From Escherichia coli (GTDB lineage Bacteria > Pseudomonadota > Gammaproteobacteria > Enterobacterales > Enterobacteriaceae): a stretch of 64,000 nucleotides of DNA. The position numbers were made by a program, and so were the translations under genes. The stretch lies in the NCBI RefSeq assembly GCF_029227855.1, contig NZ_CP074356.1; one strand, given 5' to 3'. Below the pieces are notes generated by a model. It was not told where the DNA came from, did no database searches, and worked only from the letters and a program-made list of their open reading frames with translations. The stretch's first letter is position 1. Every line of letters starts with the position of its first letter. Shown here piece by piece: positions 8,184 to 61,208 of the stretch.

Positions 8184-9533
8184 TTGGCGGGTTTTAACAT
8201 CAAACATTGGTTTGCAGATGGCGCGTTTCGCACCATTATTCGCAATAGCGCCTGGTTAGGCTCCAGTAATGTCGTGAGCGCTTTGCTGGGTCTGTTGGCG
8301 CTCTCGTGTGCCGGTAAAGGGATGACGCCCGCCATGTTTGGCGTACTGGTGATTGTGCAATCGTACGCCAAGTCGATCAGCGATTTTATTAAGTTTCAGA
8401 CATGGCAGTTGGTGGTGCAGTACGGAACGCCAGCCTTGACCAACAATAATCCGCAGCAATTTCGCAATGTCGTCTCATTTTCCTTCTCGTTGGATATCGT
8501 CAGCGGCGCGGTGGCGATTGTCGGCGGCATTGCCTTACTCCCTTTTCTTTCCCATTCATTAGGTCTGGATGACCAAAGCTTTTGGCTGGCAGCGCTGTAT
8601 TGCACGCTCATTCCTTCAATGGCTTCCTCCACGCCGACCGGCATTCTGCGTGCGGTAGATCGCTTCGACTTAATTGCTGTACAGCAGGCGACGAAACCTT
8701 TTCTGCGCGCAGCGGGGAGCGTCGTTGCCTGGTATTTTGACTTTGGTTTTGCGGGTTTTGTTATTGCCTGGTACGCCTCGAATCTTGTTGGCGGCACCAT
8801 GTACTGGTGGTTTGCCGCACGTGAATTACGCCGCAGAAATATCCATAACGCGTTCAAATTGAATCTGTTTGAGTCTGCCCGACACATCAAAGGCGCGTGG
8901 AGTTTTGTCTGGTCAACCAACATTGCCCATTCCATCTGGTCGGCGCGTAATTCGTGCAGCACAGTGTTGGTGGGGATCGTGTTAGGACCCGCTGCCGCCG
9001 GGTTATTTAAAATCGCCATGACATTCTTCGACGCCGCCGGAACGCCAGCGGGTTTACTGGGTAAAAGTTTTTACCCAGAGGTGATGCGTTTAGATCCGCG
9101 CACCACCAGACCGTGGTTGTTAGGCGTGAAGTCCGGTTTACTGGCGGGCGGAATCGGTATTCTGGTGGCGCTCGCGGTGTTGATCGTCGGCAAGCCGCTC
9201 ATTTCGCTGGTGTTTGGCGTTAAGTATCTCGAAGCGTATGACCTGATTCAGGTGATGCTGGGCGCAATTGTGATCTCGATGCTGGGCTTCCCTCAGGAGT
9301 CATTGCTATTGATGGCGGGAAAACAGCGCGCTTTTCTCGTGGCGCAAACCATCGCCTCAATCGGCTACATCGTATTGCTGTTCATGTTCTGTCATCTGTT
9401 TGGCGTGCTGGGGGCTGCATTTGCTTACTTCGGTGGGCAATGTCTGGATGTGGTGTTCTCGCTAATTCCGACCTTAAAGGCATTTTTTCAGCGCCATTCC
9501 TTGCTTTATAACTCAGCCGGAGAGAAATCCTGA
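8184..9533 (+). CDS. yghQ: YghQ, polytopic inner-membrane protein, MOP/Wzx-like putative flippase (449 aa as called from TTG start; first in-frame ATG is codon 47)
   Basis: Many hydrophobic segments throughout; N-terminus resembles polysaccharide-transporter family; stop overlaps downstream ATG (ATGA). Confidence 0.8.
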   Translation: MAGFNIKHWFADGAFRTIIRNSAWLGSSNVVSALLGLLALSCAGKGMTPAMFGVLVIVQSYAKSISDFIKFQTWQLVVQYGTPALTNNNPQQFRNVVSFSFSLDIVSGAVAIVGGIALLPFLSHSLGLDDQSFWLAALYCTLIPSMASSTPTGILRAVDRFDLIAVQQATKPFLRAAGSVVAWYFDFGFAGFVIAWYASNLVGGTMYWWFAARELRRRNIHNAFKLNLFESARHIKGAWSFVWSTNIAHSIWSARNSCSTVLVGIVLGPAAAGLFKIAMTFFDAAGTPAGLLGKSFYPEVMRLDPRTTRPWLLGVKSGLLAGGIGILVALAVLIVGKPLISLVFGVKYLEAYDLIQVMLGAIVISMLGFPQESLLLMAGKQRAFLVAQTIASIGYIVLLFMFCHLFGVLGAAFAYFGGQCLDVVFSLIPTLKAFFQRHSLLYNSAGEKS

Positions 9534-10357
9534 TGATGAGAAAATATTTCCCGCTTGAGGCGAGCGAGCGTCTATTTGTTGCGATTGAAGAAGATGATGT
9601 TGTTGATGCACAGGTCAGTTTGCCGCCGACTATCGCACTAAGTTGTACCACCGAAATCATCCATGATAATTACGCGTTATGCCTGCAATTCTGGCTCAAT
9701 GGCGTCAATCGCCAGGAGTTACTGCGTTTAATATGCAAACAGGCCAAAGGCGATGAGCTGACTGCTGATGAGCGCAAACAATTTAAATACATGCGAGCGC
9801 GCTACAAGCACCTGCGTTTTGCGCAACGGCTGTATTTAAAAAAGCATCAGGCCGGATTTTTATTCGGCAAAACGACCGTTTTTTTGGGGCGTTTTCAGGA
9901 CGGCTTTCGTAACGGTAAGAAAAATATTGTGTCGTATTACGGCAACCTGTTACGGGTTTATTTAAGCTCTCCGGTCTGGTCGTTGGTGAACTATTCATTA
10001 CGCCATAGCCAGTTAGAAAGCGTAAGCGGTTTTATTGCCTATCGGCAAAAGCAAATGCATACCCTGAAAGAGATAATTGCCAAATCGCGACTAACTGGCA
10101 GGGAATTTCATGATGTGCGAAAAATCATCAGCCAGCAGGTTTCTTATTACGACACCCTAAGATCGCTTGATCCTGAAAATAAAGAGGCGTTACAGATTTC
10201 CCGCTTCCTCGCCGCCATTAATGGCCTGATGGGGGATAAACACGACGACATGGTGGCGGATGATATGGAAAACCGCCAGTCGTATGATGCACCGATGGCG
10301 CTGGATAGCGATATTCGTCAGCGCTTAGAACTGCTGATTTCGCGTTTTCCGCTATAA
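9533..10357 (+). CDS. Hypothetical soluble protein (274 aa), translationally coupled to yghQ
   Basis: ATG overlaps yghQ stop; no transmembrane segments or signal peptide evident; basic/aromatic-rich helical-looking sequence; no domain recognised by eye. Confidence 0.6.
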   Translation: MMRKYFPLEASERLFVAIEEDDVVDAQVSLPPTIALSCTTEIIHDNYALCLQFWLNGVNRQELLRLICKQAKGDELTADERKQFKYMRARYKHLRFAQRLYLKKHQAGFLFGKTTVFLGRFQDGFRNGKKNIVSYYGNLLRVYLSSPVWSLVNYSLRHSQLESVSGFIAYRQKQMHTLKEIIAKSRLTGREFHDVRKIISQQVSYYDTLRSLDPENKEALQISRFLAAINGLMGDKHDDMVADDMENRQSYDAPMALDSDIRQRLELLISRFPL

Positions 10358-10365
10358 CCGGAGCA

Positions 10366-10929
10366 ATGATGTCATCTCGTTTGATTATTGCGCTGGTTAT
10401 CATGCTCTTAGCCCCGGGTGTGCAGGCGCACAATTTCGTCACTGGTAAAACGGTTACCCCTGTTTATATCCAGGAAGGCGGCGAGCTGCTTCTGAATAGC
10501 GAAGACGAAATTCACTACCAAAAGTGGAACAGCACACAGCTGGCGGGAAAAGTCCGCATTATTCAGTATATCGCCGGGCGTAAGTCGGCGAAGAAAAAGA
10601 ACTCACTGTTAATTAAAGCGGTTGAAGCGGCAAACTTTCCGCAGGATCGTTTTCAGCCCACCACCATTGTGAACACTGATGATGCCATCTTTGGTACCGG
10701 CTATTTTGTCGTTGGCAAAATCGAAAAAAATAAACGCCGCTATCCATGGGCGCAATTCGTTATTGACGGCAATGGACAGGGACGCGTTGCCTGGCACTTG
10801 CAGGAGCAGAGTTCAACCATTCTGGTGCTGAATAAAACCGGGCAAATTCAGTGGGCAAAGGACGGCAGCCTGACGCCGGAAGAGGTAGAACATGTCATTG
10901 CGCTGGCGCAGAAACTGATCAATGAATAA
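10366..10929 (+). CDS. Hypothetical exported (periplasmic) protein, 187 aa
   Basis: N-terminal signal peptide MMSSRLIIALVIMLLAPGVQA followed by hydrophilic mature domain; starts 8 nt after the previous stop. Confidence 0.6.
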   Translation: MMSSRLIIALVIMLLAPGVQAHNFVTGKTVTPVYIQEGGELLLNSEDEIHYQKWNSTQLAGKVRIIQYIAGRKSAKKKNSLLIKAVEAANFPQDRFQPTTIVNTDDAIFGTGYFVVGKIEKNKRRYPWAQFVIDGNGQGRVAWHLQEQSSTILVLNKTGQIQWAKDGSLTPEEVEHVIALAQKLINE

Positions 10930-10959
10930 AAAATTCAAAGGATTGAGGGCGTTAGTGAG

Positions 10960-12030
10960 ATGAAGCTGGTTGAACACTACATCATGCGTGGTACGCGCCG
11001 TCTGGTGCTGATTATCGTCGGTTTTCTGATCTTTATTTTCGCCAGCTACTCCGCACAGCGTTATCTGACCGAAGCGGCAAATGGGACATTAGCTCTTGAT
11101 GTTGTGCTGGATATTGTTTTCTACAAGGTGCTGATTGCACTGGAGATGTTGTTACCTGTTGGACTGTATGTGTCAGTTGGCGTGACGCTAGGGCAGATGT
11201 ATACCGACTCGGAAATTACCGCTATTTCTGCGGCGGGGGGCAGTCCGGGACGCTTGTACAAAGCCGTTCTTTATCTGGCGATACCGCTAAGTATTTTTGT
11301 CACCCTTCTGTCGATGTATGGTCGTCCGTGGGCTTATGCGCAGATTTATCAACTGGAGCAACAGTCACAGTCGGAGCTGGATGTTCGCCAGTTGCGGGCA
11401 AAGAAATTTAACACTAACGATAACGGACGAATGATCCTTTCGCAGACGGTTGATCAGGATAATAATCGCCTGACTGACGCGCTGATTTATACTTCTACTG
11501 CCAATCGAACCCGCATTTTCCGCGCCCGTTCGGTTGATGTGGTTGACCCATCACCTGAGAAACCGACCGTTATGTTGCATAACGGGACCGCCTATCTTCT
11601 CGATCATCAGGGGCGTGACGACAACGAACAGATCTACCGTAATCTGCAATTACATCTGAATCCGCTGGATCAAAGCCCTAACGTCAAACGCAAAGCAAAA
11701 TCGGTCACGGAGCTGGCGCGCTCCGCCTTTCCTGCCGATCATGCCGAACTGCAATGGCGACAAAGCCGTGGCCTGACAGCGTTGTTGATGGCGCTGCTGG
11801 CCATTTCATTAAGTCGGGTAAAACCGCGGCAAGGGCGATTTTCAACGTTATTGCCACTGACGTTGCTGTTTGTTGCCATTTTTTATGGCGGCGACGTCTG
11901 CCGTACGCTGGTGGCTAACGGCGCGATTCCCCTCATTCCTGGTTTGTGGTTAGTACCCGGACTCATGCTAATGGGCCTGCTGATGCTGGTCGCACGCGAC
12001 TTCTCTTTGCTGCAGAAATTTTCCCGATGA
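10960..12030 (+). CDS. LptF-like permease (YjgP/YjgQ family), 356 aa
   Basis: N-terminus MKLVEHYIMRGTRRLVLIIVGFLIFIF typical of LptF/LptG; hydrophobic N- and C-terminal segments flanking a large hydrophilic loop; ~360 aa; RBS upstream. Confidence 0.75.
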   Translation: MKLVEHYIMRGTRRLVLIIVGFLIFIFASYSAQRYLTEAANGTLALDVVLDIVFYKVLIALEMLLPVGLYVSVGVTLGQMYTDSEITAISAAGGSPGRLYKAVLYLAIPLSIFVTLLSMYGRPWAYAQIYQLEQQSQSELDVRQLRAKKFNTNDNGRMILSQTVDQDNNRLTDALIYTSTANRTRIFRARSVDVVDPSPEKPTVMLHNGTAYLLDHQGRDDNEQIYRNLQLHLNPLDQSPNVKRKAKSVTELARSAFPADHAELQWRQSRGLTALLMALLAISLSRVKPRQGRFSTLLPLTLLFVAIFYGGDVCRTLVANGAIPLIPGLWLVPGLMLMGLLMLVARDFSLLQKFSR

Positions 12031-13106
12031 ATGTTTTCAGTCGCTATTTAATCCGTCATCTCTTTCTCGGTTTTGCCGCCGCCGCAGGGCTATTGCTGCC
12101 GCTTTTTACTACCTTCAACCTGATTAACGAACTGGATGATGTCAGCCCGGGCGGTTATCGCTGGACTCAGGCGGTGCTGGTGGTGCTGATGACCTTACCG
12201 CGTACACTGGTCGAACTTTCGCCGTTTATCGCCTTATTGGGAGGGATTGTTGGCCTGGGGCAGTTATCGAAAAACAGTGAGCTTACCGCCATTCGCAGCA
12301 CTGGGTTTTCTATCTTCCGTATTGCACTGGTGGCGCTGGTTGCCGGGATATTGTGGACTGTTTCGTTAGGCGCGATAGATGAGTGGGTGGCGTCGCCATT
12401 GCAGCAACAGGCGCTGCAAATCAAATCGACTGCCACCGCGTTGGGGGAGGACGATGACATTACCGGCAATATGCTTTGGGCCAGGCGCGGTAATGAATTT
12501 GTGACGGTGAAATCGCTGAACGAGCAGGGCCAGCCTGTGGGCGTGGAGATATTTCATTATCGCGACGATCTCTCGCTCGAATCCTACATTTTTGCACGCA
12601 GTGCCTCCATTGAAGACGACAAAACATGGATCCTGCATGGTGTGAATCATAAAAAATGGTTGAATGGCAAAGAAACGCTGGAAACATCAGATAATCTTGC
12701 CTGGCAATCGGCCTTCACCAGTATGAATCTTGAAGAGTTATCGATGCCGGGAAATACTTTTTCTGTCCGTCAACTTAATCATTACATCCATTATTTGCAG
12801 GAAACTGGGCAACCCAGCAGCGAATACCGCCTTGCACTGTGGGAAAAACTGGGACAACCCATCCTGACCCTGGCGATGATTTTGCTGGCTGTGCCGTTTA
12901 CCTTTAGTGCCCCGCGTTCGCCAGGGATGGGTAGCCGTCTCGCTGTAGGCGTCATCGTTGGCTTACTCACCTGGATCAGCTATCAAATCATGGTCAATCT
13001 GGGGTTGCTATTTGCGTTGAGCGCACCTGTTACCGCGCTCGGTTTACCGGTAGCGTTTGTGCTGGTGGCGTTGAGCCTGGTGTATTGGTATGACAGACAA
13101 CATTAA
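12027..13106 (+). CDS. LptG-like permease (YjgP/YjgQ family), 359 aa
   Basis: Track ORF trimmed to ATG overlapping upstream stop (ATGA); MNVFSRYLIRHLFLGFAAAAGLLLPLF typical LptF/G N-terminus; same topology pattern as partner. Confidence 0.75.
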   Translation: MNVFSRYLIRHLFLGFAAAAGLLLPLFTTFNLINELDDVSPGGYRWTQAVLVVLMTLPRTLVELSPFIALLGGIVGLGQLSKNSELTAIRSTGFSIFRIALVALVAGILWTVSLGAIDEWVASPLQQQALQIKSTATALGEDDDITGNMLWARRGNEFVTVKSLNEQGQPVGVEIFHYRDDLSLESYIFARSASIEDDKTWILHGVNHKKWLNGKETLETSDNLAWQSAFTSMNLEELSMPGNTFSVRQLNHYIHYLQETGQPSSEYRLALWEKLGQPILTLAMILLAVPFTFSAPRSPGMGSRLAVGVIVGLLTWISYQIMVNLGLLFALSAPVTALGLPVAFVLVALSLVYWYDRQH

Positions 13107-13107
13107 A

Positions 13108-13136
13108 CCCGCCGTGGCGCAGCGCCACAGCGGGCT
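13108..13136. terminator. Palindromic stem-loop between convergent operons (probable bidirectional terminator)
   Basis: cccgccgtggcgc a gcgccacagcggg inverted repeat in the 34-bp gap between the LptG-like stop and the alpha-oxoamine synthase stop. Confidence 0.45.
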
Positions 13137-13140
13137 CACA

Positions 13141-14313
13141 TTACTGCTTCAGAGTAGCGAACGCTTGAATGATGGCATCAATTTGCTCACGACTGTGGGC
13201 AGCGTTTACGCTACAGCGCAGCAGCGTGATGCCTGCAGGCGCGGCAGGTGGCAGGATAAGATTCACATAAACGCCCAGCGAAATAAGCTCGCGCCAGATG
13301 CGTAAACCGTCCTCTTTCGAACCGATTATTACTGGCACTACCGGGCTAATATGTGAACTTAACTCGTAACCCAGTTTTTGCAGACCGTCATACAGATGGT
13401 TGGCGTTATCCATCAGCTTTTGCCGCAGCTCTGGTTGTGAGGCAATGGTTCTTAACGACGAGCGCACGGTCGCAATGCAGGACGGAGAAGGAGAGGCGGT
13501 AAAAATATACGGGCGGCTGCCGTAGCGCAGCACTTCCATCGCTTCCGAACCGACAGCAAAACCGCCAATCGAGGCCAGACTTTTACTGAAAGTACCAACG
13601 ATAATATCCACATCATCTTCAACGCCAACGGCTTCAGCCAGTCCGCGCCCCGTTGCGCCTAACACGCCAAACGAATGCGCTTCATCGACAATCAAATAAC
13701 CACCGAGACGACGTTTGATATCAACAATTTCCGCCAGCGGCGCAACGTCACCGAGCATACTGTAGATGCCTTCAACGATGATAATCGCCTCTTTTGCCCG
13801 TTCACCGAGGCGAACCATGCGCCGTTCCAGATCTTTAGCATCGTTATGGCGGAAACGAATAATTTCCGCGCCACCGAGAGAACAGGCGTCATAAATACTG
13901 GCGTGGCTGTCGGCATCCAGTAACACCACGGCGTTATGGTCGGCAAGTGCGCTGATGACGCCTAAATTAGCGGTATAACCGGTTGAAAAAACGATAGCGG
14001 TAGGGCGATTAAAAAACTCGGCGATCTCTTTCTCTAACGCCAGATGCGGCGCATAACTGCCGTTTGCCATACGAGAACCGGTGGTGCCGGTGCCTTGGGC
14101 CGCTAACGCTGCCTGACCTTCGGCGATGGCATCATGATTAAAGGTTAAACCGAGATAATTATTGGTCCCGGCCAGAATCACTTTTTTATTGCCGATCCGA
14201 CCTTCGGTGGCGGAATACACTTCATCAATACAGGTGCCAAACGGTGTTAACCCGTTGTCACTAAATTGCAGTCGCTCGCCAGCAAGGCGCGCATATTTAT
14301 CGTATAGCCCCAT
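13141..14313 (-). CDS. PLP-dependent alpha-oxoamine synthase, serine palmitoyltransferase-like (390 aa)
   Basis: Class-II aminotransferase fold signature with Schiff-base lysine in GTFSKSLASIGGF (the TFSKS variant is typical of SPT rather than BioF/KBL); Gly-rich loop TGTTGSRMANGS; start overlaps ACP stop (TAATG). Confidence 0.85.
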   Translation of the reverse strand: MGLYDKYARLAGERLQFSDNGLTPFGTCIDEVYSATEGRIGNKKVILAGTNNYLGLTFNHDAIAEGQAALAAQGTGTTGSRMANGSYAPHLALEKEIAEFFNRPTAIVFSTGYTANLGVISALADHNAVVLLDADSHASIYDACSLGGAEIIRFRHNDAKDLERRMVRLGERAKEAIIIVEGIYSMLGDVAPLAEIVDIKRRLGGYLIVDEAHSFGVLGATGRGLAEAVGVEDDVDIIVGTFSKSLASIGGFAVGSEAMEVLRYGSRPYIFTASPSPSCIATVRSSLRTIASQPELRQKLMDNANHLYDGLQKLGYELSSHISPVVPVIIGSKEDGLRIWRELISLGVYVNLILPPAAPAGITLLRCSVNAAHSREQIDAIIQAFATLKQ

Positions 14314-14561
14314 TATTTATTCTCCAGCCATGGAAGTAGTGTTTCCATTAATTGCGCAGGGGTTTTGACATCCAGCAGAATATTAATAGGAATGGAAATA
14401 TCGAATCTGTCTTCCAGCATCATTAAGAGATCCATCACTTTGATCGACTCCAGGCCAAGATCGTTGACGAGATCGCTGTCGGGCTTAATTTCCACACCGT
14501 TTTCGACCAAATCCTGTAAACAGGAAAGGATGTAATCCATTACTATTTCACGATTTACCAT
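14313..14561 (-). CDS. Acyl carrier protein (82 aa)
   Basis: Small acidic protein with phosphopantetheine-attachment motif DLGLESIKVMDL; located between reductase and alpha-oxoamine synthase. Confidence 0.8.
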   Translation of the reverse strand: MVNREIVMDYILSCLQDLVENGVEIKPDSDLVNDLGLESIKVMDLLMMLEDRFDISIPINILLDVKTPAQLMETLLPWLENK

Positions 14562-14592
14562 AGAAACGTTAACACACCTTTAAACAAGACAA

Positions 14593-15507
14593 TCAAAATA
14601 GCCCGTTGCGTAATGCGTGTTCCAGGCTAATCCCGGGAAACCAATTAATATCTTCAGAAATACGGTTATTACTTGCCGACCAGTCGGCGTGGGTTAATTC
14701 ACGAATTTTCGAGCGGGTCAGCATAGGTTCTTTACCTGCCAGGCGACTCAACGCGGTACTGATATCCGCAAGGCAGGTGAGTACCGGCAGAGGAATACCA
14801 ACCATTCGCACGGAACCACAACGGGCGTCGGCGGCAAGCTGTCGTACGTGTTGCCAGTCATAGCCGCCGGGGACGCCATCGCATAATTCATAGGTTTGCG
14901 TCTGTACAGTTTCGGCGCTTAACCACTGCCCCACGGCTTGCGCAAAATCGGTGATGTGCAGGAAAGAGAGTTGTGTATCTGGCGCACCAAGTCGTGGCAG
15001 CAGGCCGCGCAGCATCCAGTCAAACAGCGGTTTTAACTCTTTATCGCCGGGACCATACACGGCTGTCGGGCGAAAAACGCCCAGCGTAATTTCATCAGCC
15101 ATTGCAGTCAGCCGTTGTTCGGCGACGTGTTTGGAATTTGCGTACCAGGAGAGTTCGGGATGGCGCGCCGCCAGCGAAGAGATAAACAGAAAACGTTGGC
15201 AAAAGCCGCTCTCTTTTGCCGCTTGCATCAGTCGCAGGCTGCCGTCAACGTTACAGCGGGTAAAAATCTCTTCTTTGTGCCCGCGCACTTGCCCGGCGCA
15301 ATGGACCACCGCGCTGGCTCCGGCAACCAGTTCGCTAAGTGAATGAGTATCTTCCAGAGAACCGCGCACCCAGGTGAGATTATCATTGACGTGAGCGCGG
15401 GCAGTACGCGTCAATGCGCGAACGTGAAAGCCGCGGGCGAGCAGGTTATCGATAATATATTTACCGATAAACCCGGTAGCGCCCGTCACCGCGACAGTTT
15501 GATTCAT
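14593..15507 (-). CDS. NAD(P)-dependent epimerase/dehydratase-family (extended SDR) reductase, 304 aa
   Basis: N-terminal Rossmann motif VTGATGFIG; catalytic YANSK (YxxxK); start overlaps upstream stop (ATGA). Confidence 0.8.
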   Translation of the reverse strand: MNQTVAVTGATGFIGKYIIDNLLARGFHVRALTRTARAHVNDNLTWVRGSLEDTHSLSELVAGASAVVHCAGQVRGHKEEIFTRCNVDGSLRLMQAAKESGFCQRFLFISSLAARHPELSWYANSKHVAEQRLTAMADEITLGVFRPTAVYGPGDKELKPLFDWMLRGLLPRLGAPDTQLSFLHITDFAQAVGQWLSAETVQTQTYELCDGVPGGYDWQHVRQLAADARCGSVRMVGIPLPVLTCLADISTALSRLAGKEPMLTRSKIRELTHADWSASNNRISEDINWFPGISLEHALRNGLF

Positions 15508-17228
15508 GCCAGGGATTCCTGCACATGAAGGCTTGCAGCATAAGCCTTCTGATAACGTTTTTTCGCTTCCGCACGGGCAGGCTTGCCGGAGGACGTTCGG
15601 GGAATACTGTGGGGCGGCAACAGATCGATAGCCGCGGTCACGCCAAATTCGCTTTGGATCCGTGCTGCCAGCGCGTGGATAAGCTGCCCGCGACGTTCTT
15701 CATCGCTGATCCGACACTGGATCTGCAAAATGATTTTTTCCTGGGCGGTAACAAAAGCAATCGCATCGCCAGAATGAATTTCCGGTTCCTGTTCCGCAAT
15801 ATATTCAATATCCTGCGGCCAGATATTACGGCCACGAATAATAATCAGATCTTTAATGCGTCCGGTGACATACAGATAACCGTCCAGCAGATAACCGAGG
15901 TCGCCGGTGTCTAACCAGCCCGTCGCGGCAATCTCGTCTTGTGAAATCTGGTCGCCAAAGTAACCGCTCATCAGGCTAGGGCCGGAGATGCAAATATGGC
16001 CTACCACACGTTCCGCGACAGGTATACCTGCTTCATTGCGGATTTCAATGCCATGTTCCGGCAACGCTTTACCGCAGTTGACGAAAGTCGATACGGCGCG
16101 TGTTTCAGCATCCGGCGCGACGGCTTTGCCCTGATATTCGAGGATGTCGCGATCCACTTCGTTAACCACAACCCCGGAAGCTTCATCAGAGAAGCTGACA
16201 GCCAGCGCATTTTCTGCCAGTCCGTAGCACGGCATGAAAGTTTTATCGTCAAAGTTGACCTGACGGAAACATTCAGCGAATTGATGGAGTTGTTCTGCGG
16301 AGATGGGTTCTGCACCAATACCAGCGACGCGCCAGCAGGAAAGATCCAGTTCAGCGAGATCTTTTTCATTCACGCGGCGCTGGCACAATTCATAGCCAAA
16401 CGGCGGCGCAACGGAAACGGTGCCGCGATTTTTACTGATCAATTTAAGCCATTGCAGAGGACGCATGGCAAAATCCTGAGTGCGCAAATAATCTACTGAA
16501 AGCTGCGTGGCGACGGGGGTCAGGAGAAAGCCGACCAGTCCCATATCATGGTAGAAAGGCAGCCAGGAGACGCAGCGGTCGCCAGGGCGTAATTTAATGC
16601 CATCGTGGCTTATAGCACGTAGATTAGCCATCACTTCGCGATGGGTGATAATGACGCCACGGGGAAAACGGGTGCTGCCGGAGGTGTACTGGAGGTAGGC
16701 GATATCGTTCGGAACTGGATGCTGGAGTGCAACATCGGCTTCCGGTAATGCCTTAAACCAGGCGTGGCTTAAAACATGTAATTCGGGGTTGTTGTTATGC
16801 GTCGCGGCATTGACCAGCGGTAACCACTCATCACCAGTGATAATGGCTGCGGGCTGGCAACTTGTCAGTAAACCCTGCAGTTTGGCGCTCCAGGAATCCC
16901 GCTGACCGACGCCCATTGGAATCGCCAACGGGACGGCGACTAAGCCGGCATACTGGCAGGAAAAAAAAGCCTCTACGAACCCGCTACTGGTTTCGGCAAT
17001 CAGCGCCACGCGATCGCCTTTTTTCAGGTTCAGCGATAACAACCGCTTCGCACCAGCTTCGGCACGCGCTTTTAACGTCTGATATTCCAGTTGATCTTCA
17101 AGTTGGCAACGTCTGTCATAAAAATTCATTCCGGCGCTACTCAGAGCGGCGTAGTCCAAAGCATCAACCAGCGTTGGAAAATCGGCATAGCGCATAGGTA
17201 GGGAATGCGTAAAGATTTTATTAGACAT
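15504..17228 (-). CDS. Fatty acyl-AMP ligase / acyl-ACP synthetase-like adenylating enzyme (~574 aa; track ORF extends to TTG at 17255)
   Basis: AMP-binding core YTSGSTRFPRGV; WLPFYHDMGLVG motif and overall length resemble FAAL-type enzymes; first gene of the minus-strand operon. Start chosen at first ATG (MSNKIFTHSL). Confidence 0.8.
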   Translation of the reverse strand: MSNKIFTHSLPMRYADFPTLVDALDYAALSSAGMNFYDRRCQLEDQLEYQTLKARAEAGAKRLLSLNLKKGDRVALIAETSSGFVEAFFSCQYAGLVAVPLAIPMGVGQRDSWSAKLQGLLTSCQPAAIITGDEWLPLVNAATHNNNPELHVLSHAWFKALPEADVALQHPVPNDIAYLQYTSGSTRFPRGVIITHREVMANLRAISHDGIKLRPGDRCVSWLPFYHDMGLVGFLLTPVATQLSVDYLRTQDFAMRPLQWLKLISKNRGTVSVAPPFGYELCQRRVNEKDLAELDLSCWRVAGIGAEPISAEQLHQFAECFRQVNFDDKTFMPCYGLAENALAVSFSDEASGVVVNEVDRDILEYQGKAVAPDAETRAVSTFVNCGKALPEHGIEIRNEAGIPVAERVVGHICISGPSLMSGYFGDQISQDEIAATGWLDTGDLGYLLDGYLYVTGRIKDLIIIRGRNIWPQDIEYIAEQEPEIHSGDAIAFVTAQEKIILQIQCRISDEERRGQLIHALAARIQSEFGVTAAIDLLPPHSIPRTSSGKPARAEAKKRYQKAYAASLHVQESLA

Positions 17229-17599
17229 ATACACCACGAAAAAATTGGATATCAAAAATAAAATGACAATAATGCGGTGGATTATATAGGCATAAAAGAT
17301 AAATGAGATAATATTTTCATCAGTGTGAAAATGAACATTGATTTAAATAATGAGTTTGAGTTTTTTTGTTTTTATTGTGAATGATATTTAATTTATGAAT
17401 GTATTAAGAAGAAGCCTTGTCCGGTCGCCTTAAATCGACAAAAGGCATTGTGGCGCTTCTGTGTAGTCTCTGACCTTATCGTAATCATTAATAAATACTA
17501 TTTATTCGTCGTTTGTATTCATTGGGTTGATTATTAAGGTGCCGTTCGTTGCTGTTGCAACCTGTTTTTCACCGTTAATTATTTGTTACCCACAGAACT
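17229..17599. promoter_or_regulatory. AT-rich divergent control region between lipid operon (-) and yghO (+)
   Basis: ~370 bp strongly AT-rich non-coding DNA with A/T tracts; no ORF with coding character; expected site of promoters for both flanking units. Confidence 0.35.
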
Positions 17600-18742
17600 A
17601 TGGAATGCGATCTGCTGATGATTAAAATTGAAAAAGTAATTAATAAAAATGACCTTAAGGCATTTATCGCTTTTCCGTCATCACTTTATCCCGACGATCC
17701 AAACTGGATACCCCCTTTATTCATTGAACGCAACGAGCATTTGTCTGCGAAAAATCCGGGGACGGACCATATCATCTGGCAGGCGTGGGTGGCAAAAAAA
17801 GCGGGGCAGATAGTTGGGCGTATTACCGCGCAAATAGATACCTTGCACCGCGAGCGTTACGGTGAAGATACCGGTCATTTCGGCATGATTGACGCCATTG
17901 ATGATCCGCAGGTTTTTGCCGCGTTGTTTGGCGCAGCGGAAGCGTGGTTGAAGTCACAAGGTGCAAGTAAGATCAGCGGTCCTTTCAGCCTGAATATCAA
18001 TCAGGAAAGCGGATTACTGATTGAAGGTTTCGATACACCACCCTGTGCGATGATGCCGCACGGTAAACCGTGGTATGCCGCGCATATTGAACAATTGGGT
18101 TATCACAAAGGCATTGATTTACTAGCGTGGTGGATGCAGCGAACCGATCTCACTTTCTCTCCGGCGCTAAAAAAACTGATGGATCAGGTGCGTAAGAAGG
18201 TGACCATTCGCTGCATCAATCGCCAGCGGTTTGCCGAAGAGATGCAGATCCTGCGTGAGATTTTCAACTCTGGCTGGCAGCACAACTGGGGATTTGTGCC
18301 GTTTACCGAACATGAATTCGCGACTATGGGCGATCAACTTAAATATCTGGTGCCGGACGATATGATCTACATCGCTGAGATTGATTCTGCACCCTGCGCG
18401 TTTATTGTTGGCTTGCCAAACATCAACGAGGCGATTGCCGATCTGAACGGATCGCTCTTTCCCTTCGGCTGGGCAAAATTGCTGTGGCGTTTAAAAGTCA
18501 GCGGTGTGCGAACTGCGCGAGTACCGCTGATGGGCGTGCGGGACGAGTATCAGTTTAGCCGCATCGGCCCGGTGATTGCGCTGTTATTGATTGAAGCCTT
18601 ACGCGATCCGTTTGCCCGCCGGAAGATCGATGCGCTGGAGATGTCATGGATCCTCGAAACCAATACAGGCATGAATAACATGCTGGAACGCATTGGGGCG
18701 GAGCCGTACAAGCGTTACCGATTGTATGAAAAGCAGATTTGA
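17600..18742 (+). CDS. yghO: YghO-family protein, intact (380 aa); possible acyl-CoA N-acyltransferase-like fold
   Basis: Uninterrupted ORF, soluble; position matches yghO next to glcC. Fold assignment is tentative. Confidence 0.7.
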   Translation: MECDLLMIKIEKVINKNDLKAFIAFPSSLYPDDPNWIPPLFIERNEHLSAKNPGTDHIIWQAWVAKKAGQIVGRITAQIDTLHRERYGEDTGHFGMIDAIDDPQVFAALFGAAEAWLKSQGASKISGPFSLNINQESGLLIEGFDTPPCAMMPHGKPWYAAHIEQLGYHKGIDLLAWWMQRTDLTFSPALKKLMDQVRKKVTIRCINRQRFAEEMQILREIFNSGWQHNWGFVPFTEHEFATMGDQLKYLVPDDMIYIAEIDSAPCAFIVGLPNINEAIADLNGSLFPFGWAKLLWRLKVSGVRTARVPLMGVRDEYQFSRIGPVIALLLIEALRDPFARRKIDALEMSWILETNTGMNNMLERIGAEPYKRYRLYEKQI

Positions 18743-50220: not shown

Positions 50221-52179
50221 TTATCCAATATTGTTTTTATAGTCAATGGTTTTTTTTATTAAGTTATAAGAAGCGATAGGGTTTCGTTTAACGCTTTTGA
50301 TAAAGACAAACGCCAAAGCTGTTTTCTTATTCTCTTGAGATAACATGATATGATTGGAGTTTAATAGACCAATAGGAGATTCAATATTTTTAGTTTTAAA
50401 AATACTGTTGTGAGTAAAATATAAGTTACATTCTTTTTTTGCGAACTTTTCGAACCCCAAATCACTTAATAATATTATGTCTGAATAGTCTTCAGTATAT
50501 ACTAAATTTGGATTGATAAGGTTGTATTCTTTATTCGGGTATTTAGAAACTAAAGTGTCTAGCAATAATTTGTCTGAGACAATATCTATACAATCAAAAC
50601 AATCGGTGTTGTCTAAGAGTGTATATAATTTATGTTGATTTATGTCTTTATACCCTTTCGCCCAGATAAGTAATCTTTTTGATAATTTATCCTTTAGTCT
50701 ATTGTTTCCTGCTTTTACTCTACGATAAAGTAAATCAGAATTCTCTCTGAATCCAAGAGGGTCTAATATATAATCATTCGAATCAATTGGTGACTTGAAA
50801 CTATAAAGAATTGGTTTGTTTGCTTTTTGTCTTATTCTATATAGATCATTTATGTGCAAGCTTAATGATTCATCAAAAATAATAAGTTCTGGGTTTTCTT
50901 TTGAAATGATTTTCAAAATGTCATCTTGAGCGAGATTTTGCGGGAGAATATGTTCACAAAATTGACTTACTTCTGAACCATATCGACCTGAATAAATAAA
51001 GACAGGGATAATATTACTATCATTATATAAATTAAAATAGAACTTAATTGCATGCACAGTGGATGCAGCAATTAACACTTTTACAGGGGTTATCGGTAAT
51101 GAAATATCCTGTTCATAAATCTCGTATGGGATATAATCCCTTTTATCATGTTCTGATTTAAATGTTATTCCTCTATATATTTTTTTCTCTAATCCCGTAA
51201 TAAATCTTTCAACGTGTCGCAACCCTTTTAAAAAATCCTTTCTTAATATGTTACATGCTGTTTCAAAACAGCTTGGGTTTACTGGTTGATTAATAAACTC
51301 AATGATTTCTTTTGCGAAGGTTGATATATCCCCATAAGGAACAACCCTAATAATTTCAGGAGGGGCTATTTCTGAGTTTCCGCCAACATCCCAACAGACT
51401 ACAGGTGTATATGTCGATAAAGACTCCAAAATAGCCATTGAGCAGTTTTCAAATTTGCTTAGAGATATAGCTACCTTAGCTCGGGATAGAAAATTAAATT
51501 TTTCATTTCCCTCAATATGTTCAAGGAAAGAAACATTAGAATACTCTTTAGATAAAGTGATTTTTTTCTCTTGTTTTCCGACAATAAAAATACTTAGATC
51601 ATTAGGTAAATTTTTTATGAGTGGTTCAATAAATTCAATTCCCTTAAGGTTGTTAAATCTGCTGAAGAAAATTACATCTATGTCTTTTTCAATTACACTT
51701 TTAAGAAGGTCTTTTTTTAGTGTGATTGGATTTTTATATACATGTATATTTGTAATGTCTAAATCATCTTTAAGTAGTTCTAACATGCCGTAAGATGGAG
51801 AGGAGACGGCTTTGGCTTTATAAATCGCTCTGCATTCATCTGAAAAACGAGCCTCATCAGGCTCTTCATTGATGATTCTTTTATATAGATGAAAGGGGCA
51901 ATGTAATCTGATATGTATATTTGCATCTTTTGGGAATAAAAGAGTTGGAGATTGTGATTCTGCTGCTTCAATTATTGTAGTGTGGTTTATTGCTTTTTTA
52001 TTTAAATTTAGATACGTGAATTTTCTAAAGTCTGGCATCGACATATCGTAAGGCTTTACAAACTCTTTATATGGGAAATCATAAACTTCATTGACTGTTT
52101 TAATATAATTAGTCACACCATTGCTGAATTCTGGATTATAGATAAAGTGATTGATGGATATTCTTTCAAGAGATTTCAT
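50221..52179 (-). CDS. Capsule region-2 protein (652 aa), probable glycosyltransferase (GT-B/GT4-like N-terminal part)
   Basis: Segment ...AISLSKFENCSMAILESLSTYTPVVCWDVGGNSEI resembles the GT4 E-x7-E/nucleotide-sugar binding region; AT-rich; between kpsT and the 800-aa gene. Confidence 0.6.
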   Translation of the reverse strand: MKSLERISINHFIYNPEFSNGVTNYIKTVNEVYDFPYKEFVKPYDMSMPDFRKFTYLNLNKKAINHTTIIEAAESQSPTLLFPKDANIHIRLHCPFHLYKRIINEEPDEARFSDECRAIYKAKAVSSPSYGMLELLKDDLDITNIHVYKNPITLKKDLLKSVIEKDIDVIFFSRFNNLKGIEFIEPLIKNLPNDLSIFIVGKQEKKITLSKEYSNVSFLEHIEGNEKFNFLSRAKVAISLSKFENCSMAILESLSTYTPVVCWDVGGNSEIAPPEIIRVVPYGDISTFAKEIIEFINQPVNPSCFETACNILRKDFLKGLRHVERFITGLEKKIYRGITFKSEHDKRDYIPYEIYEQDISLPITPVKVLIAASTVHAIKFYFNLYNDSNIIPVFIYSGRYGSEVSQFCEHILPQNLAQDDILKIISKENPELIIFDESLSLHINDLYRIRQKANKPILYSFKSPIDSNDYILDPLGFRENSDLLYRRVKAGNNRLKDKLSKRLLIWAKGYKDINQHKLYTLLDNTDCFDCIDIVSDKLLLDTLVSKYPNKEYNLINPNLVYTEDYSDIILLSDLGFEKFAKKECNLYFTHNSIFKTKNIESPIGLLNSNHIMLSQENKKTALAFVFIKSVKRNPIASYNLIKKTIDYKNNIG

Positions 52180-52372
52180 AATTTCTTTGCTCCTAACTAT
52201 TTGGGGTTATTGAAAATTATTTTTTGTTTGTTTCCACCTAAGGTTTATTTAGGATGATTGTGTAACTAACTATGTCTTAATTTACGTTTGATAAAATCAT
52301 TATTGTGTTGATAAATGTGATTAAAATAATATCATTTAAATTAAGTGTTAAGGTGCGTCAATATTATCGGCA

Positions 52373-53062
52373 TTACAGGTTAAATTCAGGGAGACATATG
52401 TTTTTTTCATCATGTCTATATTTGTCTATGGCAAGTGATATATCCTTGTAATATAAGGTGTGATTATTCCTCCCAAAGTAAATGGCCTCATCGCAATATT
52501 CTTTTAATAAGTTAAGACTATGAGAGACTATCAAAAAATTTGATTTTTCATGTTTTTCCCTAAATAAGGAAAAACATTTCTCTTTAAATCTGGCGTCTCC
52601 CACAGCCATAACTTCATCAACAAGATAATAATCAAAATCAAATGCCATGCTGAGTCCAAATCCTAACCGAGAACGCATGCCAGAAGAATATGTTTTTATT
52701 GGCATGTCAAAGTATTTCCCCAGTTCGGAAAATTCCTCTACAAATGAAACCTTATCTTGCAGCTCATCTTTTTTAGCATAAAGTCTTGCAACAAATTTAA
52801 CATTTTCACGCCCTGTCAGACTGCCTTGAAAACCACCAGCTAAACCTACTGGCCATGAAATGGTTTGATCAGTAAGTATTCTCCCCTTATCTGGTCGATC
52901 TATACCACCTATTATTCGAAGCAATGTTGATTTACCTGCACCATTGCGTCCAACTAAAGCAACACTTTTTCCTGTGGGTAATTCAATATTTAAATCTTTA
53001 AAAACATAATGTCTTCCTTTAGGTGTACGATATGATTTGGTGAGATTCTCAATACGTATCAT
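52373..53062 (-). CDS. kpsT: Capsule export ABC transporter ATP-binding protein KpsT (229 aa)
   Basis: Track ORF trimmed to MIRIENLTKSYRT; Walker A GRNGAGKST; ABC signature YSSGMRSRL; Walker B YYLVDE. Confidence 0.9.
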   Translation of the reverse strand: MIRIENLTKSYRTPKGRHYVFKDLNIELPTGKSVALVGRNGAGKSTLLRIIGGIDRPDKGRILTDQTISWPVGLAGGFQGSLTGRENVKFVARLYAKKDELQDKVSFVEEFSELGKYFDMPIKTYSSGMRSRLGFGLSMAFDFDYYLVDEVMAVGDARFKEKCFSLFREKHEKSNFLIVSHSLNLLKEYCDEAIYFGRNNHTLYYKDISLAIDKYRHDEKNICLPEFNL

Positions 53063-53838
53063 GAGGTTAACATAGCCTCCTCTTTGAAACGGTAAAGGCA
53101 AAGTCCTACGAAAAACACTACTAAAGAAAAAAATGCAAGATAATTAATACTAACACCTTCACTTATATATCCCGGTACAACAGATTGGCGACTTAACTCC
53201 ACAACATGTACTAAAGGATTCCATAATAAATATCCCCAGTATATTTTAGGGATAGAATGGAGAGGAAACATTACGCAAGATATGAAATAAAGAGGTTTAA
53301 TCATTATGGGCAAAAATTTTTCCGTTTCTGGGAAAGTTTTACCTAACACCATGAAAATTAAACCTATACCAAGAGAAAATATAATAAGTAATCCCCAAGT
53401 TGCAGCGAGTATAATGATGTTTAAAAATGAAAATTCTTCTCCAAGTAGACCTACAATTGACATGAGGATTATGTAAACACCACTATATATTAATGCTTCA
53501 AGAAGGGTTCGTGAAATTATGGTGTCAATAGGCTTTATAGGCCTGTAATTAAATAAGCCCTGATTAGAGTTTATTGCTCCAATAGAGCGGACAGCAATAT
53601 TACTAAAAAGAAAATAAGGGATAAGTCCGTTTAGAAGAAACACTGGGAACGATATATCTGGCATAGTTCTATGCATAATATATCCAAATATACCAATCAA
53701 GATTATCAAATGTGCTGTTGGCTCAAGGAGTGCCCATAAATACCCCAGACGATATTTACCAAAACGAGTCTTAATTTCACGAAGAAATAAAGCTTTTACT
53801 GCTGCTATTTGAACTTCAAAACCACTTCTTCTAGCCAT
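53059..53838 (-). CDS. kpsM: Capsule export ABC-2 permease KpsM (259 aa)
   Basis: Track ORF trimmed to MARRSGFEVQ; ABC-2 polytopic permease; immediately upstream of kpsT with overlapping stop/start. Confidence 0.9.
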   Translation of the reverse strand: MARRSGFEVQIAAVKALFLREIKTRFGKYRLGYLWALLEPTAHLIILIGIFGYIMHRTMPDISFPVFLLNGLIPYFLFSNIAVRSIGAINSNQGLFNYRPIKPIDTIISRTLLEALIYSGVYIILMSIVGLLGEEFSFLNIIILAATWGLLIIFSLGIGLIFMVLGKTFPETEKFLPIMIKPLYFISCVMFPLHSIPKIYWGYLLWNPLVHVVELSRQSVVPGYISEGVSINYLAFFSLVVFFVGLCLYRFKEEAMLTS

Positions 53839-53865
53839 TTGAGATATAACCTTAATATATTTTGG

Positions 53866-53877
53866 TACGCTACCGCC
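53866..53877 (-). promoter_or_regulatory. ops (GGCGGTAG) element in kpsM leader; RfaH antitermination site
   Basis: Plus-strand ctaccgcc (reverse complement GGCGGTAGCGT) about 30 nt upstream of the kpsM ATG on the coding strand. Confidence 0.5.
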
Positions 53878-54247
53878 CTTGGCTCTAGCTACCAGCATGC
53901 TCGGGCGTACCATATGAGACAAACCAGAATGGACAGATAAATATTTCGTCTGGTATTAGTTTGTCTTTTCTTTACGAAAATACTTATAGATTGGACAATG
54001 AAAAATTTGGTTTAAGGCAGTCCAACCTATGTAATGTTATTGAAACATCCTGCTAATAATCTTAAATTTAATGTTTCATTAAGTTCTATCAATTTAAACA
54101 CATTGATTTGCGAATTCTATCATTTAGACTTACAGATAACTCCAGTGTTTAATATGTAAACATGCCTCATAAATTGCAAGGTAGATTGCAGGTTGCTAAT
54201 CTTTTGTTACTTATATAAAATCTGTTTTGTTTATTTTATATCAAATT

Positions 54248-55480
54248 TTATTTATTGTTCAATGCAGAATTGGTTTCTAATGTAATAGTGTCGCAGTGTA
54301 ACTGTGACTCCCCATAATAAACCCCATTAACCTGCGTCTTCACCAATAAATACCCCCGAAACTTCTTAAACAGTTTCATATCCGGTTTAAAATCGGCCTG
54401 CCAGAACTGGTGCAAATGCCCTTGATACGTCAAGCCTTTGATGTCGTACAGGGCATTGCCCATCACTTTGAGTGGTTTGTTATGAATCAGCGCAGAGATC
54501 CCCGCCGTACTGTTAATCGTCACTACCGCTTTTGCATGGCGTAATAATTCCGGCATCGGGAGATCGTGCACATAAATGACTCGCTCATCTAAGCCATATT
54601 CCTTACTCAATCGCTTAATTAATGGTCGATAGAGTCTGTGACCACGATCCATCGGATGATGTTTGATCACCAAATAACTTTCTTTCGGCGCTTTACGTGA
54701 AAATGAGTACATGACTTCATTAATATAGTCACGCACATCGTTATAATTACTGTGGTTACGAATCTGGCTATCGTTATATACCTGCAAAACGGCAAGATAA
54801 TAACGCTGGTCCAGCTCGTTCATTAACCTCGGTAATACCTTACGCTGTGTTACCTTGTAAAGTTGCTTGCGCCAGTATGCACGAACCCAGCAACGAGCCT
54901 CATACCAGGGGGAAAACGATTTATGGTGGCGGTAGCGAGGGAACTCATGGCGGTAATGCCAGCCCATCAGGTAATACCACATCGCATGACCTATACGTTT
55001 CATCGTTGAAGGTTTAAAGTTCTCAACGTGCGGCGTAGGCATATCTGGTAACTTACGATAAAAATCCGGATCGCGCGGTAGCGATGAATATGCGTTTACT
55101 CCGCCTTCTTCAACGGTAATAAATTGCGGGCGTAAATATCCTTCCTCAAATGCCAGAAAGCGGATCCCTTTCGACTTTGCCCAACGTTTTGCTTCTTTGT
55201 GCAATGGGCGGCAGTCACCAAAGCAGAGGATGGTATCAAAGTCATATTGCCGGTGGAGATCCCGTAACCATCCGGGGAACTCTTTCGGCGTTTGGTAGTA
55301 AGCCAGGTATTGTCGATGGCGGCAGTAAAAACGATCCCCACCGTTGAATACAACATTCACAGCGTTACGTCCTAATGACTCTAACCATTCGGCGACGTCA
55401 TTGAAAAAAGGTCCCATCGGCCCCTGCAATAGCAGATATTTTTTACCGGATAATAAAACGGTTAGAGCATTACCTTGCAT
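54248..55480 (-). CDS. kpsS: Capsule biosynthesis protein KpsS (410 aa)
   Basis: N-terminus MQGNALTVLLSGKKYLLLQGPMGPFF; Capsule_synth-type protein downstream of kpsC. Confidence 0.88.
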   Translation of the reverse strand: MQGNALTVLLSGKKYLLLQGPMGPFFNDVAEWLESLGRNAVNVVFNGGDRFYCRHRQYLAYYQTPKEFPGWLRDLHRQYDFDTILCFGDCRPLHKEAKRWAKSKGIRFLAFEEGYLRPQFITVEEGGVNAYSSLPRDPDFYRKLPDMPTPHVENFKPSTMKRIGHAMWYYLMGWHYRHEFPRYRHHKSFSPWYEARCWVRAYWRKQLYKVTQRKVLPRLMNELDQRYYLAVLQVYNDSQIRNHSNYNDVRDYINEVMYSFSRKAPKESYLVIKHHPMDRGHRLYRPLIKRLSKEYGLDERVIYVHDLPMPELLRHAKAVVTINSTAGISALIHNKPLKVMGNALYDIKGLTYQGHLHQFWQADFKPDMKLFKKFRGYLLVKTQVNGVYYGESQLHCDTITLETNSALNNK

Positions 55481-55514
55481 AAATAATTTCCGTAATAGTC
55501 AACTATGAAATTGT

Positions 55515-57542: not shown

Positions 57543-58279
57543 GCGTTTTCAGCCAGTTCCTGTGCCATCAGGGCGCGCACTTTTTCCAGGCATGCTGGGG
57601 TGTCGACGCCCGGACCGGTTGCGGCAACCTCAAATGTGCGGATGTTGATCCCCGCGCTCATCAACCGCAGCTGCTCCAGTGATTCTGCCTGCTCCGGCAT
57701 GGACTCCGGTAACTGGCTGTAGTTTTGCAGCACATCACGACGATAAGCATAAATACCGACGTGTTTCAGGTAGCGCGCTTTTTCAGCATTACGCGGATAC
57801 GGAATCGGCGAACGGCTGAAATAAAGTGCATCCTGGCGGGTATTCACAACCACTTTTACCGTGCTTGGCTCGGCCGCTTCTTCGGCAGAAATCGCGTGGC
57901 ATAGCGTTGCCACTGGCAACGCGGGATCGTCACGCATTCCTTGTAGCAGCGTTTCTACATCCCGCGGGCGAATCATTGGTTCATCGCCCTGCAAGTTAAT
58001 GTAGATATCTGCTTCCACCGTATGCATTACCTCGACCAGCCGATCGGTGCCGGATTCATGATCGTTGCGCGTCATGATGGCTTTCCCGCCAAATGCCTGC
58101 ACGGCCTTTTCAACACGCGGGTCGTCTGTTGCCACCCAAACTTCCGCAACGCCCGCCACCTGTAACGCACGCTCGTAAACATGCTGGATCATCGGTTTAC
58201 CAACAATATCGAGCAGTGGCTTACCCGGCAGACGCGATGAGCCATAACGAGCCGGGATGACAATAACAGCTTTGCTCAT
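57539..58279 (-). CDS. kpsU: CMP-Kdo synthetase KpsU (246 aa)
   Basis: N-terminus [22 protein letters not shown] typical of KdsB/KpsU. Confidence 0.92.
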
Positions 58280-58288
58280 TTCAACTCC

Positions 58289-59965: not shown

Positions 59966-59988
59966 CACAAACTCATTCAGCGACAGCG

Positions 59989-61137: not shown

Positions 61138-61208
61138 GTAACGATTATCAAAGTTTCAGTGGGGCGCAAACTCAATGAGAGACTAACCTCTCGCACCCCG
61201 TTGCTTAA

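Follow-up and report, generated by a model that had tools for sequence, protein, structure and literature searches.

The closest described counterpart of the locus considered here is the ceramide gene set of Caulobacter crescentus, made up of aasR (CC_1165), cerR (CC_1164), acpR (CC_1163), spt (CC_1162) and cerS, also called bCerS (CC_1154) (PMC9386255, PMC11324152, PMC11087976). The same five gene functions occur in Escherichia coli around an AT-rich non-coding spacer, which we analysed at positions 17229-17599 of a 64,000-nucleotide stretch of an E. coli genome (contig NZ_CP074356.1; this whole stretch is called the window below). Unlike in Caulobacter crescentus, the E. coli gene yghO is directly divergent from the operon. 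In BL21(DE3), ECD_02851-02854 were named aasR, epi, acpR and spt, and yghO (ECD_02850) was named as the N-acyltransferase "aca" (Padilla-Gomez et al. 2022, PMC9386255); cerR and cerS came into use later (PMC11324152). Overexpressed together, E. coli AasR, AcpR and Spt produce 3-oxo-sphinganine (PMC9386255). The five genes make up the ceramide (sphingolipid) pathway already published for E. coli, with (dihydro)ceramide as its predicted product, so that a preliminary description of this DNA, which held the product to be unknown, is outdated in kind: AasR, AcpR and Spt have been assayed (PMC9386255). The Caulobacter and E. coli ceramide papers cover the enzymes (PMC9386255, PMC11324152, PMC11087976), and we found nothing published on the regulatory spacer or on native expression. 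No report of a native E. coli sphingolipid was found in the literature that could be searched, and sphingolipids do not figure among the E. coli membrane lipids that textbooks usually name (PMC10191378). With overexpressed enzymes that work and a native locus that looks silent, the content of the spacer would decide whether and when E. coli makes a sphingolipid.

A second point of comparison is provided by the regulatory regions of bgl and proU, AT-rich promoter regions that are silenced by H-NS and StpA. Our locus resembles such regions (bgl, proU, kps) in its AT-rich promoter region, in genes that are off in the laboratory and in an H-NS/StpA signal within the operon. It differs from them in that the ceramide gene bodies are neither AT-rich nor listed as bound, bar the 249-bp acpR, in that the spacer lacks a nucleation motif and curvature, and in being ancestral rather than newly acquired. 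The occupancy values from strain CFT073 differ as well, with 0.22 for acpR versus 0.56-0.80 for c3694-c3696, genes of kps region 2 (PMC9765446).

The spacer, with its AT-rich core, its three conservation zones and two smaller elements, can be laid out as follows.

17229-17599 (to 17617 with the alternative yghO start), no strand: intergenic spacer, from the list of open reading frames (ORFs) and the Prokaryotic Genome Annotation Pipeline (PGAP) annotation; 31.3% GC
17229-17399, no strand: AT-rich core, 22.8% GC (77% AT), with most of the A/T runs
17229-17345, minus strand: nearly invariant block, about 74% AT, 108/117 columns; read as the predicted aasR 5' untranslated region (UTR, about 46 nt) with core promoter and proximal operator
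17281-17286, minus strand: predicted -10 element TATAAT of the aasR operon promoter, the best minus-strand match to a position weight matrix (PWM), 52 nt upstream of the ATG
17405-17480, no strand: fast-evolving middle segment, 29/76 columns invariant, under the level of 4-fold degenerate sites; carries an IS1 insertion in one strain
17481-17617, plus strand: moderately conserved yghO-proximal part, about 65% of columns invariant
17548-17571, plus strand: GTTGC/GCAAC hairpin followed by a T run, terminator-like, its second arm deleted in two Escherichia lineages

Three zones are thus apparent in the spacer: a near-invariant block beside aasR, a fast-evolving middle and a moderately conserved part beside yghO. 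They were delimited in an alignment that set the window beside five E. coli strains and four further Escherichia lineages, in which invariance was counted across five lineages and the 4-fold degenerate sites of aasR and yghO served as the neutral reference. Within the aasR-proximal block 92% of the columns are invariant, as compared to 214 of the 400 4-fold sites (54%; Fisher p = 2e-16). The contrast holds when only A/T positions are counted (80/87 in the block, 59/140 at 4-fold sites; p = 5e-15), and mutation bias therefore does not explain the invariance of the block. In the middle segment the Escherichia lineages carry two alleles that look unrelated to each other. The sharply delimited block is what is new here, the enzymes and their genes being known already.

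The TATAAT at 17286-17281 is perfect and invariant across the Escherichia lineages, while the best -35 candidate, ATCTCA at 17309-17304, is poor. If transcription begins near 17274, the block comprises the 5' UTR plus the promoter to about -71, which is as much as a core promoter and a proximal operator would be expected to take up. Hexamers resembling a -10 element are found in the corresponding stretch of Hafnia (TATAAT, 75 nt from the ATG) and of Pseudocitrobacter (TATATT and, by eye, TATAAC, 53-62 nt from the ATG). The sequence ATTATATAG at 17281-17289 gives TATAAT when read on the minus strand and TATATA when read on the plus strand, with implied divergent starts about 21 bp apart. Bidirectional promoters built on a near-symmetrical -10 region were reportedly described by Warman et al. 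in 2021. The near-symmetrical -10 at ATTATATAG between two divergent genes recalls them and serves as a lead only. It differs from them in that the plus-strand hexamer is just a 4/6 match, from which the yghO leader would be about 320 nt long. On the plus strand the best promoter candidates are found in the AT-rich core, 226-354 bp upstream of 17618. The terminator-like hairpin is probably not functional.

In base composition the spacer bears out the preliminary description, which had placed about 370 bp of AT-rich non-coding DNA with A/T tracts between a divergent lipid operon and yghO. It measures 371 bp from the ATG of aasR, on the minus strand, to the PGAP start of yghO at 17600, on the plus strand (389 bp if yghO begins at 17618), and both the ORF list and the PGAP annotation have the two genes transcribed divergently. 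That annotation was transferred from strain JNEC-KY178 (record NZ_AP045174.1; window position = record position - 768,900), which is 100% identical over 17129-17699. The GC content of the spacer lies below the 48.8% of the window as a whole and the roughly 50-53% of coding sequences, and differs between its halves (22.8% in 17229-17399, 38.5% in 17400-17599). Ten A or T runs of at least 4 bases are present, including A6, T7 and T5, most of them in the aasR-proximal half. When the window's 17 intergenic regions of 50 bp or more are ranked, however, the spacer is only 9th lowest in GC content, with comparable values for yghT-yghS (30.6%), gss-pitB (30.9%) and glcA-sslE (30.5%), and about 8% of all 371-bp segments, chiefly in the capsule cluster, are equally or more AT-rich. 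It is the longest of the window's four divergent spacers. The composition is therefore well off the coding mean and yet typical for intergenic DNA of the window. As a sequence feature the spacer, non-coding DNA between oppositely oriented genes whose conserved part is free of ORFs of at least 20 amino acids (aa), is an ordinary AT-rich divergent promoter region of a known kind.

The reading that we prefer, and hold with about as much confidence as doubt, is that of a composite control region in which an activator-dependent aasR promoter is combined with H-NS/StpA on the AT-rich core and a specific factor induces the operon in nature. The spacer would be the common upstream control region of the two divergent units that encode the E. 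coli ceramide pathway. Its block at 17229-17345 would contain operator sites, the 5' UTR of about 46 nt and a promoter dependent on an activator or on being released from repression, since its perfect TATAAT comes without a usable -35. During standard laboratory growth the operon would be kept off by this intrinsically weak, activator-dependent promoter together with H-NS/StpA occupying the AT-rich core, and a specific factor or signal would turn the pathway on in nature. An invariant block with a TATAAT and no usable -35 points to specific control besides any effect of H-NS. More tentatively, we regard it as possible that the 117-bp block serves as operator and promoter in the response to a dedicated regulator or signal, by which ceramide synthesis is induced in most natural E. 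coli. If this were true, E. coli would be a conditional producer of a lipid class never reported from it, and the inducing condition could be sought by way of the spacer. The search is narrowed to 117 bp and is directly testable, and silencing of foreign DNA by H-NS would be at best half the answer.

That the locus is silent in the laboratory, as the preliminary description had suggested, gains indirect support from BL21(DE3), which carries it. Expression there of Spt alone, or of AcpR and AasR alone, gives the lipid profile of the empty vector, and empty-vector extracts have no Spt activity even with the acyl-AcpR substrate (PMC9386255). The chromosomal copy thus supplies no missing pathway component and no detectable Spt activity, and the chromosomal operon, of which no product was detectable in this strain, appears to be functionally off in laboratory culture. 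In the literature searched, neither native expression of the locus nor a link of yghO or spt to H-NS was found.

Direct data on H-NS come from Hustmyer et al. 2022, who carried out chromatin immunoprecipitation sequencing (ChIP-seq) of H-NS and StpA in uropathogenic E. coli CFT073 grown in rich defined medium and listed 798 H-NS-bound genes (PMC9765446). Between kpsM and yghS/yghT the sole gene listed as H-NS-bound is c3714, of 249 nt (Data set S1E, PMC9765446). It is acpR, the only unnamed 249-nt gene there on the CFT073 map, and its H-NS value, 0.216 in the wild type, drops to 0.042 when hns is mutated and to 0.020 when both hns and stpA are (PMC9765446). The CFT073 analysis averages over genes, with intergenic DNA, the spacer included, outside the scoring (PMC9765446). 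Indeed yghS and yghT (48-51% GC) are H-NS-bound in this strain though only their 174-bp spacer is AT-rich (31% GC); a peak like that one would be diluted over the longer aasR and yghO. A second data set, H-NS chromatin affinity precipitation sequencing of strains SE11 and SE15, has a supplement limited to spacers between K-12 orthologues, and the present spacer is thus not in it (PMC4720273). The kps capsule genes, whose homologues are in this window, are H-NS-bound in CFT073 as well (PMC9765446).

Several observations weigh against the composite reading, on its H-NS side and on its promoter side. The genes aasR, cerR, spt and yghO are missing from the CFT073 list of H-NS-bound genes (PMC9765446), and no measurement of the spacer itself by transcription start mapping, reporter, ChIP or RNA sequencing was found in the literature. 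The authors of the BL21(DE3) study suggest that chromosomal ECD_02852 and yghO may convert an overproduced intermediate (PMC9386255), and the silence may therefore be incomplete. Neither periodicity of AA/TT at 10-11 bp, as expected of phased A-tracts and curvature, nor an excess of binding motifs was seen in the spacer. For the latter we searched for TCGATAAATT, which we take to be the H-NS high-affinity motif, and obtained one match with 2 mismatches versus 1.1 expected from shuffles. The PWM scan gave no convincing sigma-70 promoter for yghO within 220 bp upstream, and a consensus scan gave fewer promoter-like sites than shuffles (1 versus 2.6). Of 20 regulator or sigma consensus strings, none exceeded mononucleotide shuffles (best P = 0.15); they were those of CRP, FNR, Fur, PhoB, RcsAB, IHF, ArcA, OmpR, CpxR, PhoP, FadR, Lrp, Fis, NarL, LexA, sigma-E, sigma-54, LeuO, SlyA and MarA/Rob. 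Likewise, no motif common to the spacer and other intergenic regions of the window, among them yghT-yghS, which lies upstream of the neighbouring putative export genes, was found above chance. Of the H-NS-bound promoter proposed in the preliminary description, the AT-richness is upheld, as it lies well over the genome mean across at least 100 bp. A role of H-NS is partly supported by the H-NS/StpA binding of acpR, in a list made up of genes only; the unlisted flanking genes and the lack of motif or phasing speak against it.

A simpler account, and the one which the word xenogeneic in the preliminary description implied, is that the silence is mainly due to H-NS filaments formed on AT-rich foreign DNA and that no locus-specific sequence is needed. 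An AT content of 77% in the core, the H-NS/StpA-bound acpR of CFT073, the functional silence in BL21(DE3) and the IS1 and IS5 insertions at the spacer would all be in accordance with it. The foreign origin, however, did not survive inspection of the genes. Their coding GC is 50-55% except for acpR (40.6%), the divergent layout recurs in about 35 species, of Enterobacterales and including two pseudomonads, and the ratio of nonsynonymous to synonymous substitution rates (dN/dS) between Escherichia lineages is 0.03-0.13, at dS of 0.1-0.5, for all five genes. The comparison indicates strong purifying selection on genes that are therefore used in nature, and because of these three properties we regard the ceramide locus as old and maintained and not as recently foreign DNA. 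A need for composition only cannot account for 92% invariance over 117 bp, nor does the GC content of the spacer stand out in the window. As the locus is not foreign, its flanking genes are not H-NS-bound in CFT073 and the invariance would be superfluous, and with neither nucleation motif nor curvature signal, we consider pure xenogeneic silencing unlikely. The opposite account, an ordinary regulated divergent promoter without a meaningful role for H-NS, in which a -35-less promoter awaits its specific activator or an alternative sigma factor, would fit the mid-table GC content, the strongly conserved block with TATAAT and poor -35, the absence of aasR and yghO from the H-NS-bound list and the lack of H-NS motif or phasing. 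Yet 171 bp at 23% GC is the kind of DNA that H-NS generally binds, an H-NS/StpA signal is present 2.7 kb away in the same operon on less AT-rich DNA, and neither an activator site nor an alternative sigma motif was found, which leaves this account doubtful.

Finally, the spacer could owe its conservation to a product of its own, a small RNA, a riboswitch or leader, or a small protein. Conservation of the 117-bp block far over neutral expectation would be accounted for in this way, and the yghO leader may be long, its best promoter candidates lying more than 220 bp upstream. Against such a product, Rfam gave no match in 16500-18500 at permissive E-values (the best was a snoRNA model, E = 0.66) and none in nine related loci at gathering thresholds. 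The yghO leader and aasR UTR fold no better than shuffles (z-scores -0.41, -1.5 and -0.86), so that neither a known family nor structure beyond shuffles speaks for a cis-regulatory or small RNA. The only ORFs of at least 20 aa in the spacer are of 29-32 aa and all lie in poorly conserved DNA, with none beyond 17255 in the block; the ORFs of the longer spacers outside Escherichia show no conservation from one genus to the next. There is also no terminator after the conserved block, and we consider a product of the spacer very improbable.

In other genera the corresponding spacers have a conserved site of their own. A strongly conserved non-coding element with the core GCATTWAGTGGTAAA, in yghO sense, is present in the spacers of at least 11 non-Escherichia genera or lineages, and a second conserved patch, AAAAGTGAATGG, lies about 40 nt upstream of that core. 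The element occurs once per locus, 118-585 bp upstream of yghO, for instance at the following sites, given by locus and position.

GCATTWAGTGGTAAA element, yghO sense: L009:6648-6662, L010:6879-6893, L014:5866-5880, L020:6412-6426, L023:6692-6706, L035:6658-6672, L038:6671-6685, and others

A profile hidden Markov model built from 16 copies of the element (nhmmer) also matches Pluralibacter, which was outside the model, and gave no match in Escherichia, Pseudocitrobacter, Citrobacter youngae, Rosenbergiella or the pseudomonads. A look-alike at 17438-17461 was tried as the E. coli copy and dropped, the model having no match in Escherichia. No consensus RNA structure and no Rfam match was found for the element, and a DNA site is therefore more likely; for the sphingolipid genes it may act as a promoter or bind a protein. 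Escherichia would have lost or replaced it, and the fast-evolving segment sits roughly at its place.

The spacer is common in the species. At least 80% of 17129-17699, that is the spacer with the ends of the flanking genes, is present in 4138 of 5426 complete E. coli genomes, and what makes it of interest is what it controls, a ceramide pathway maintained in most E. coli and missing from K-12. In K-12-type genomes window positions 9253-17639 (8.4 kb) are missing, with an IS5 in their place, a replacement also reported in PMC11677980. At one end the loss removes the 3' end of yghQ and at the other the first codons of yghO; between them a hypothetical gene, a gene of the YtfJ family, the lptF/lptG paralogues, the entire ceramide operon and the spacer are gone. 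The K-12 yghQ is consequently truncated, the K-12 yghO lacks its 5' end, and K-12 data are uninformative on the spacer. Outside the species, the divergent spt-acpR-cerR-aasR / yghO layout is common to about 35 others, including Serratia, Pluralibacter, Citrobacter, Pseudocitrobacter, Erwinia, Rosenbergiella, Hafnia, Cedecea, Sodalis, Shimwellia, Klebsiella indica and two pseudomonads. In every locus with both aasR and yghO the spacer, of 288-1113 bp, has a GC content 6-26 points under that of the flanking coding DNA.

Three independent insertion sequence (IS) events were found in or beside the spacer: the IS5 at about 17640 in K-12, an IS1 at about 17468, which is placed at about 17466-17471 in strain PCP06238 (L004), and IS1 at about 17518 together with about 17785. 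The IS1 insertions are in natural isolates. In the genome with the third event (L003) IS1 is found at about 17518 and about 17780-17789, and one of these is linked to loss of the whole operon. Insertion sequences of these kinds prefer AT-rich, H-NS-bound DNA. The three events are consistent with an AT-rich target of the H-NS type and are anecdotal. Among 4533 matching genomes the matched places exceed the records by only 10, and large insertions in the spacer are therefore rare. We also observed that aasR and yghO are annotated as pseudogenes, with internal stops, in single strains.

The genes flanking the spacer were assigned as follows, the leftward operon having the order aasR-cerR/epi-acpR-spt.

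15504-17228, minus strand: aasR, fatty acyl-AMP ligase or specialised synthetase of acyl-acyl carrier protein (acyl-ACP), first gene of the operon (NCBIfam NF006624, 870 bits against a cut-off of 600); equals ECD_02851
14593-15507, minus strand: epi/cerR, reductase of the NAD-dependent epimerase/dehydratase family (Pfam PF01370, E = 3e-23); equals ECD_02852
14313-14561, minus strand: acpR, specialised acyl carrier protein, 82 aa, 249 nt, 40.6% GC (Pfam PP-binding domain)
13141-14313, minus strand: spt, serine palmitoyltransferase (NCBIfam equivalog NF047599, 599 bits against a cut-off of 500)
17600-18742 (likelier start 17618), plus strand: yghO, tandem-GNAT N-acyltransferase and proposed ceramide synthase (aca/cerS), from an AlphaFold2 model with Foldseek; ECD_02850 in PMC9386255

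The cluster has the features of a rhodobacterial ceramide cluster in that its Spt is of the proteobacterial subgroup, a gene for an ACP with a PP-binding domain lies directly upstream of spt, and both a specialised acyl-ACP synthetase and a reductase of the short-chain dehydrogenase/reductase type are present. YghO has no sequence match in Pfam, NCBIfam or PDB. Its AlphaFold2 model (mean predicted local distance difference test score, pLDDT, of 79.5) has tandem-GNAT acyltransferases as best Foldseek matches in PDB (E = 1e-14 to 1e-9), and a tandem-GNAT fold is thus predicted for the protein; the orthology to CC_1154 is taken from PMC9386255. Homologues of YghO in other genera have 374 aa and align from residue 7 of the 380-aa PGAP version of E. 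coli, and the true start of yghO is therefore probably the second ATG, at 17618, rather than 17600. A clear Shine-Dalgarno sequence is absent before both candidate E. coli start codons; an AGG present 7-9 nt ahead of the yghO ATG in other genera is not found in E. coli.

Some further observations concern the surroundings of the operon. Inside its DNA of 52-55% GC there is a local dip to about 40% at 14313-14700, made up of acpR and the DNA just past it. An operon at 8184-13106 is convergent with spt. The yghQ product, a Wzx-like 'lipopolysaccharide biosynthesis protein', is encoded there together with a hypothetical protein, a member of the YtfJ family and a second LptF and LptG; these may be a dedicated machinery for flipping and export of the sphingolipid. 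Putative transport genes have been reported in the Caulobacter cluster too (PMC11324152). In Shimwellia pseudoproteus (L009, L031) we found two yghO homologues, of which the copy with 84% identity is divergent from the ceramide operon and the other, at 75% identity, is found on a different contig, where no operon lies within 7 kb. A 430-bp contig filed as Macrococcus sp. DPC7161 (L042) encodes an E. coli-type YghO N-terminus (100% identical in protein, 99% in DNA) and is almost certainly a contamination of that assembly.

The most AT-rich DNA of the window (minimum 21% GC at 45862-46232) belongs to a kps-type capsule cluster at 45137-62192, in which kpsF-E-D-U-C-S, an ABC transporter pair and serotype-specific genes, including one for a GT29-family glycosyltransferase, are all oriented towards yghD. 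CFT073 differs from this arrangement in that its capsule transporter pair adjoins yghD. At 3,530,466-3,535,938 of CFT073 (L051), sslE and the greater part of the gsp type II secretion cluster are missing, with an IS4 between a truncated gspK and glcA.

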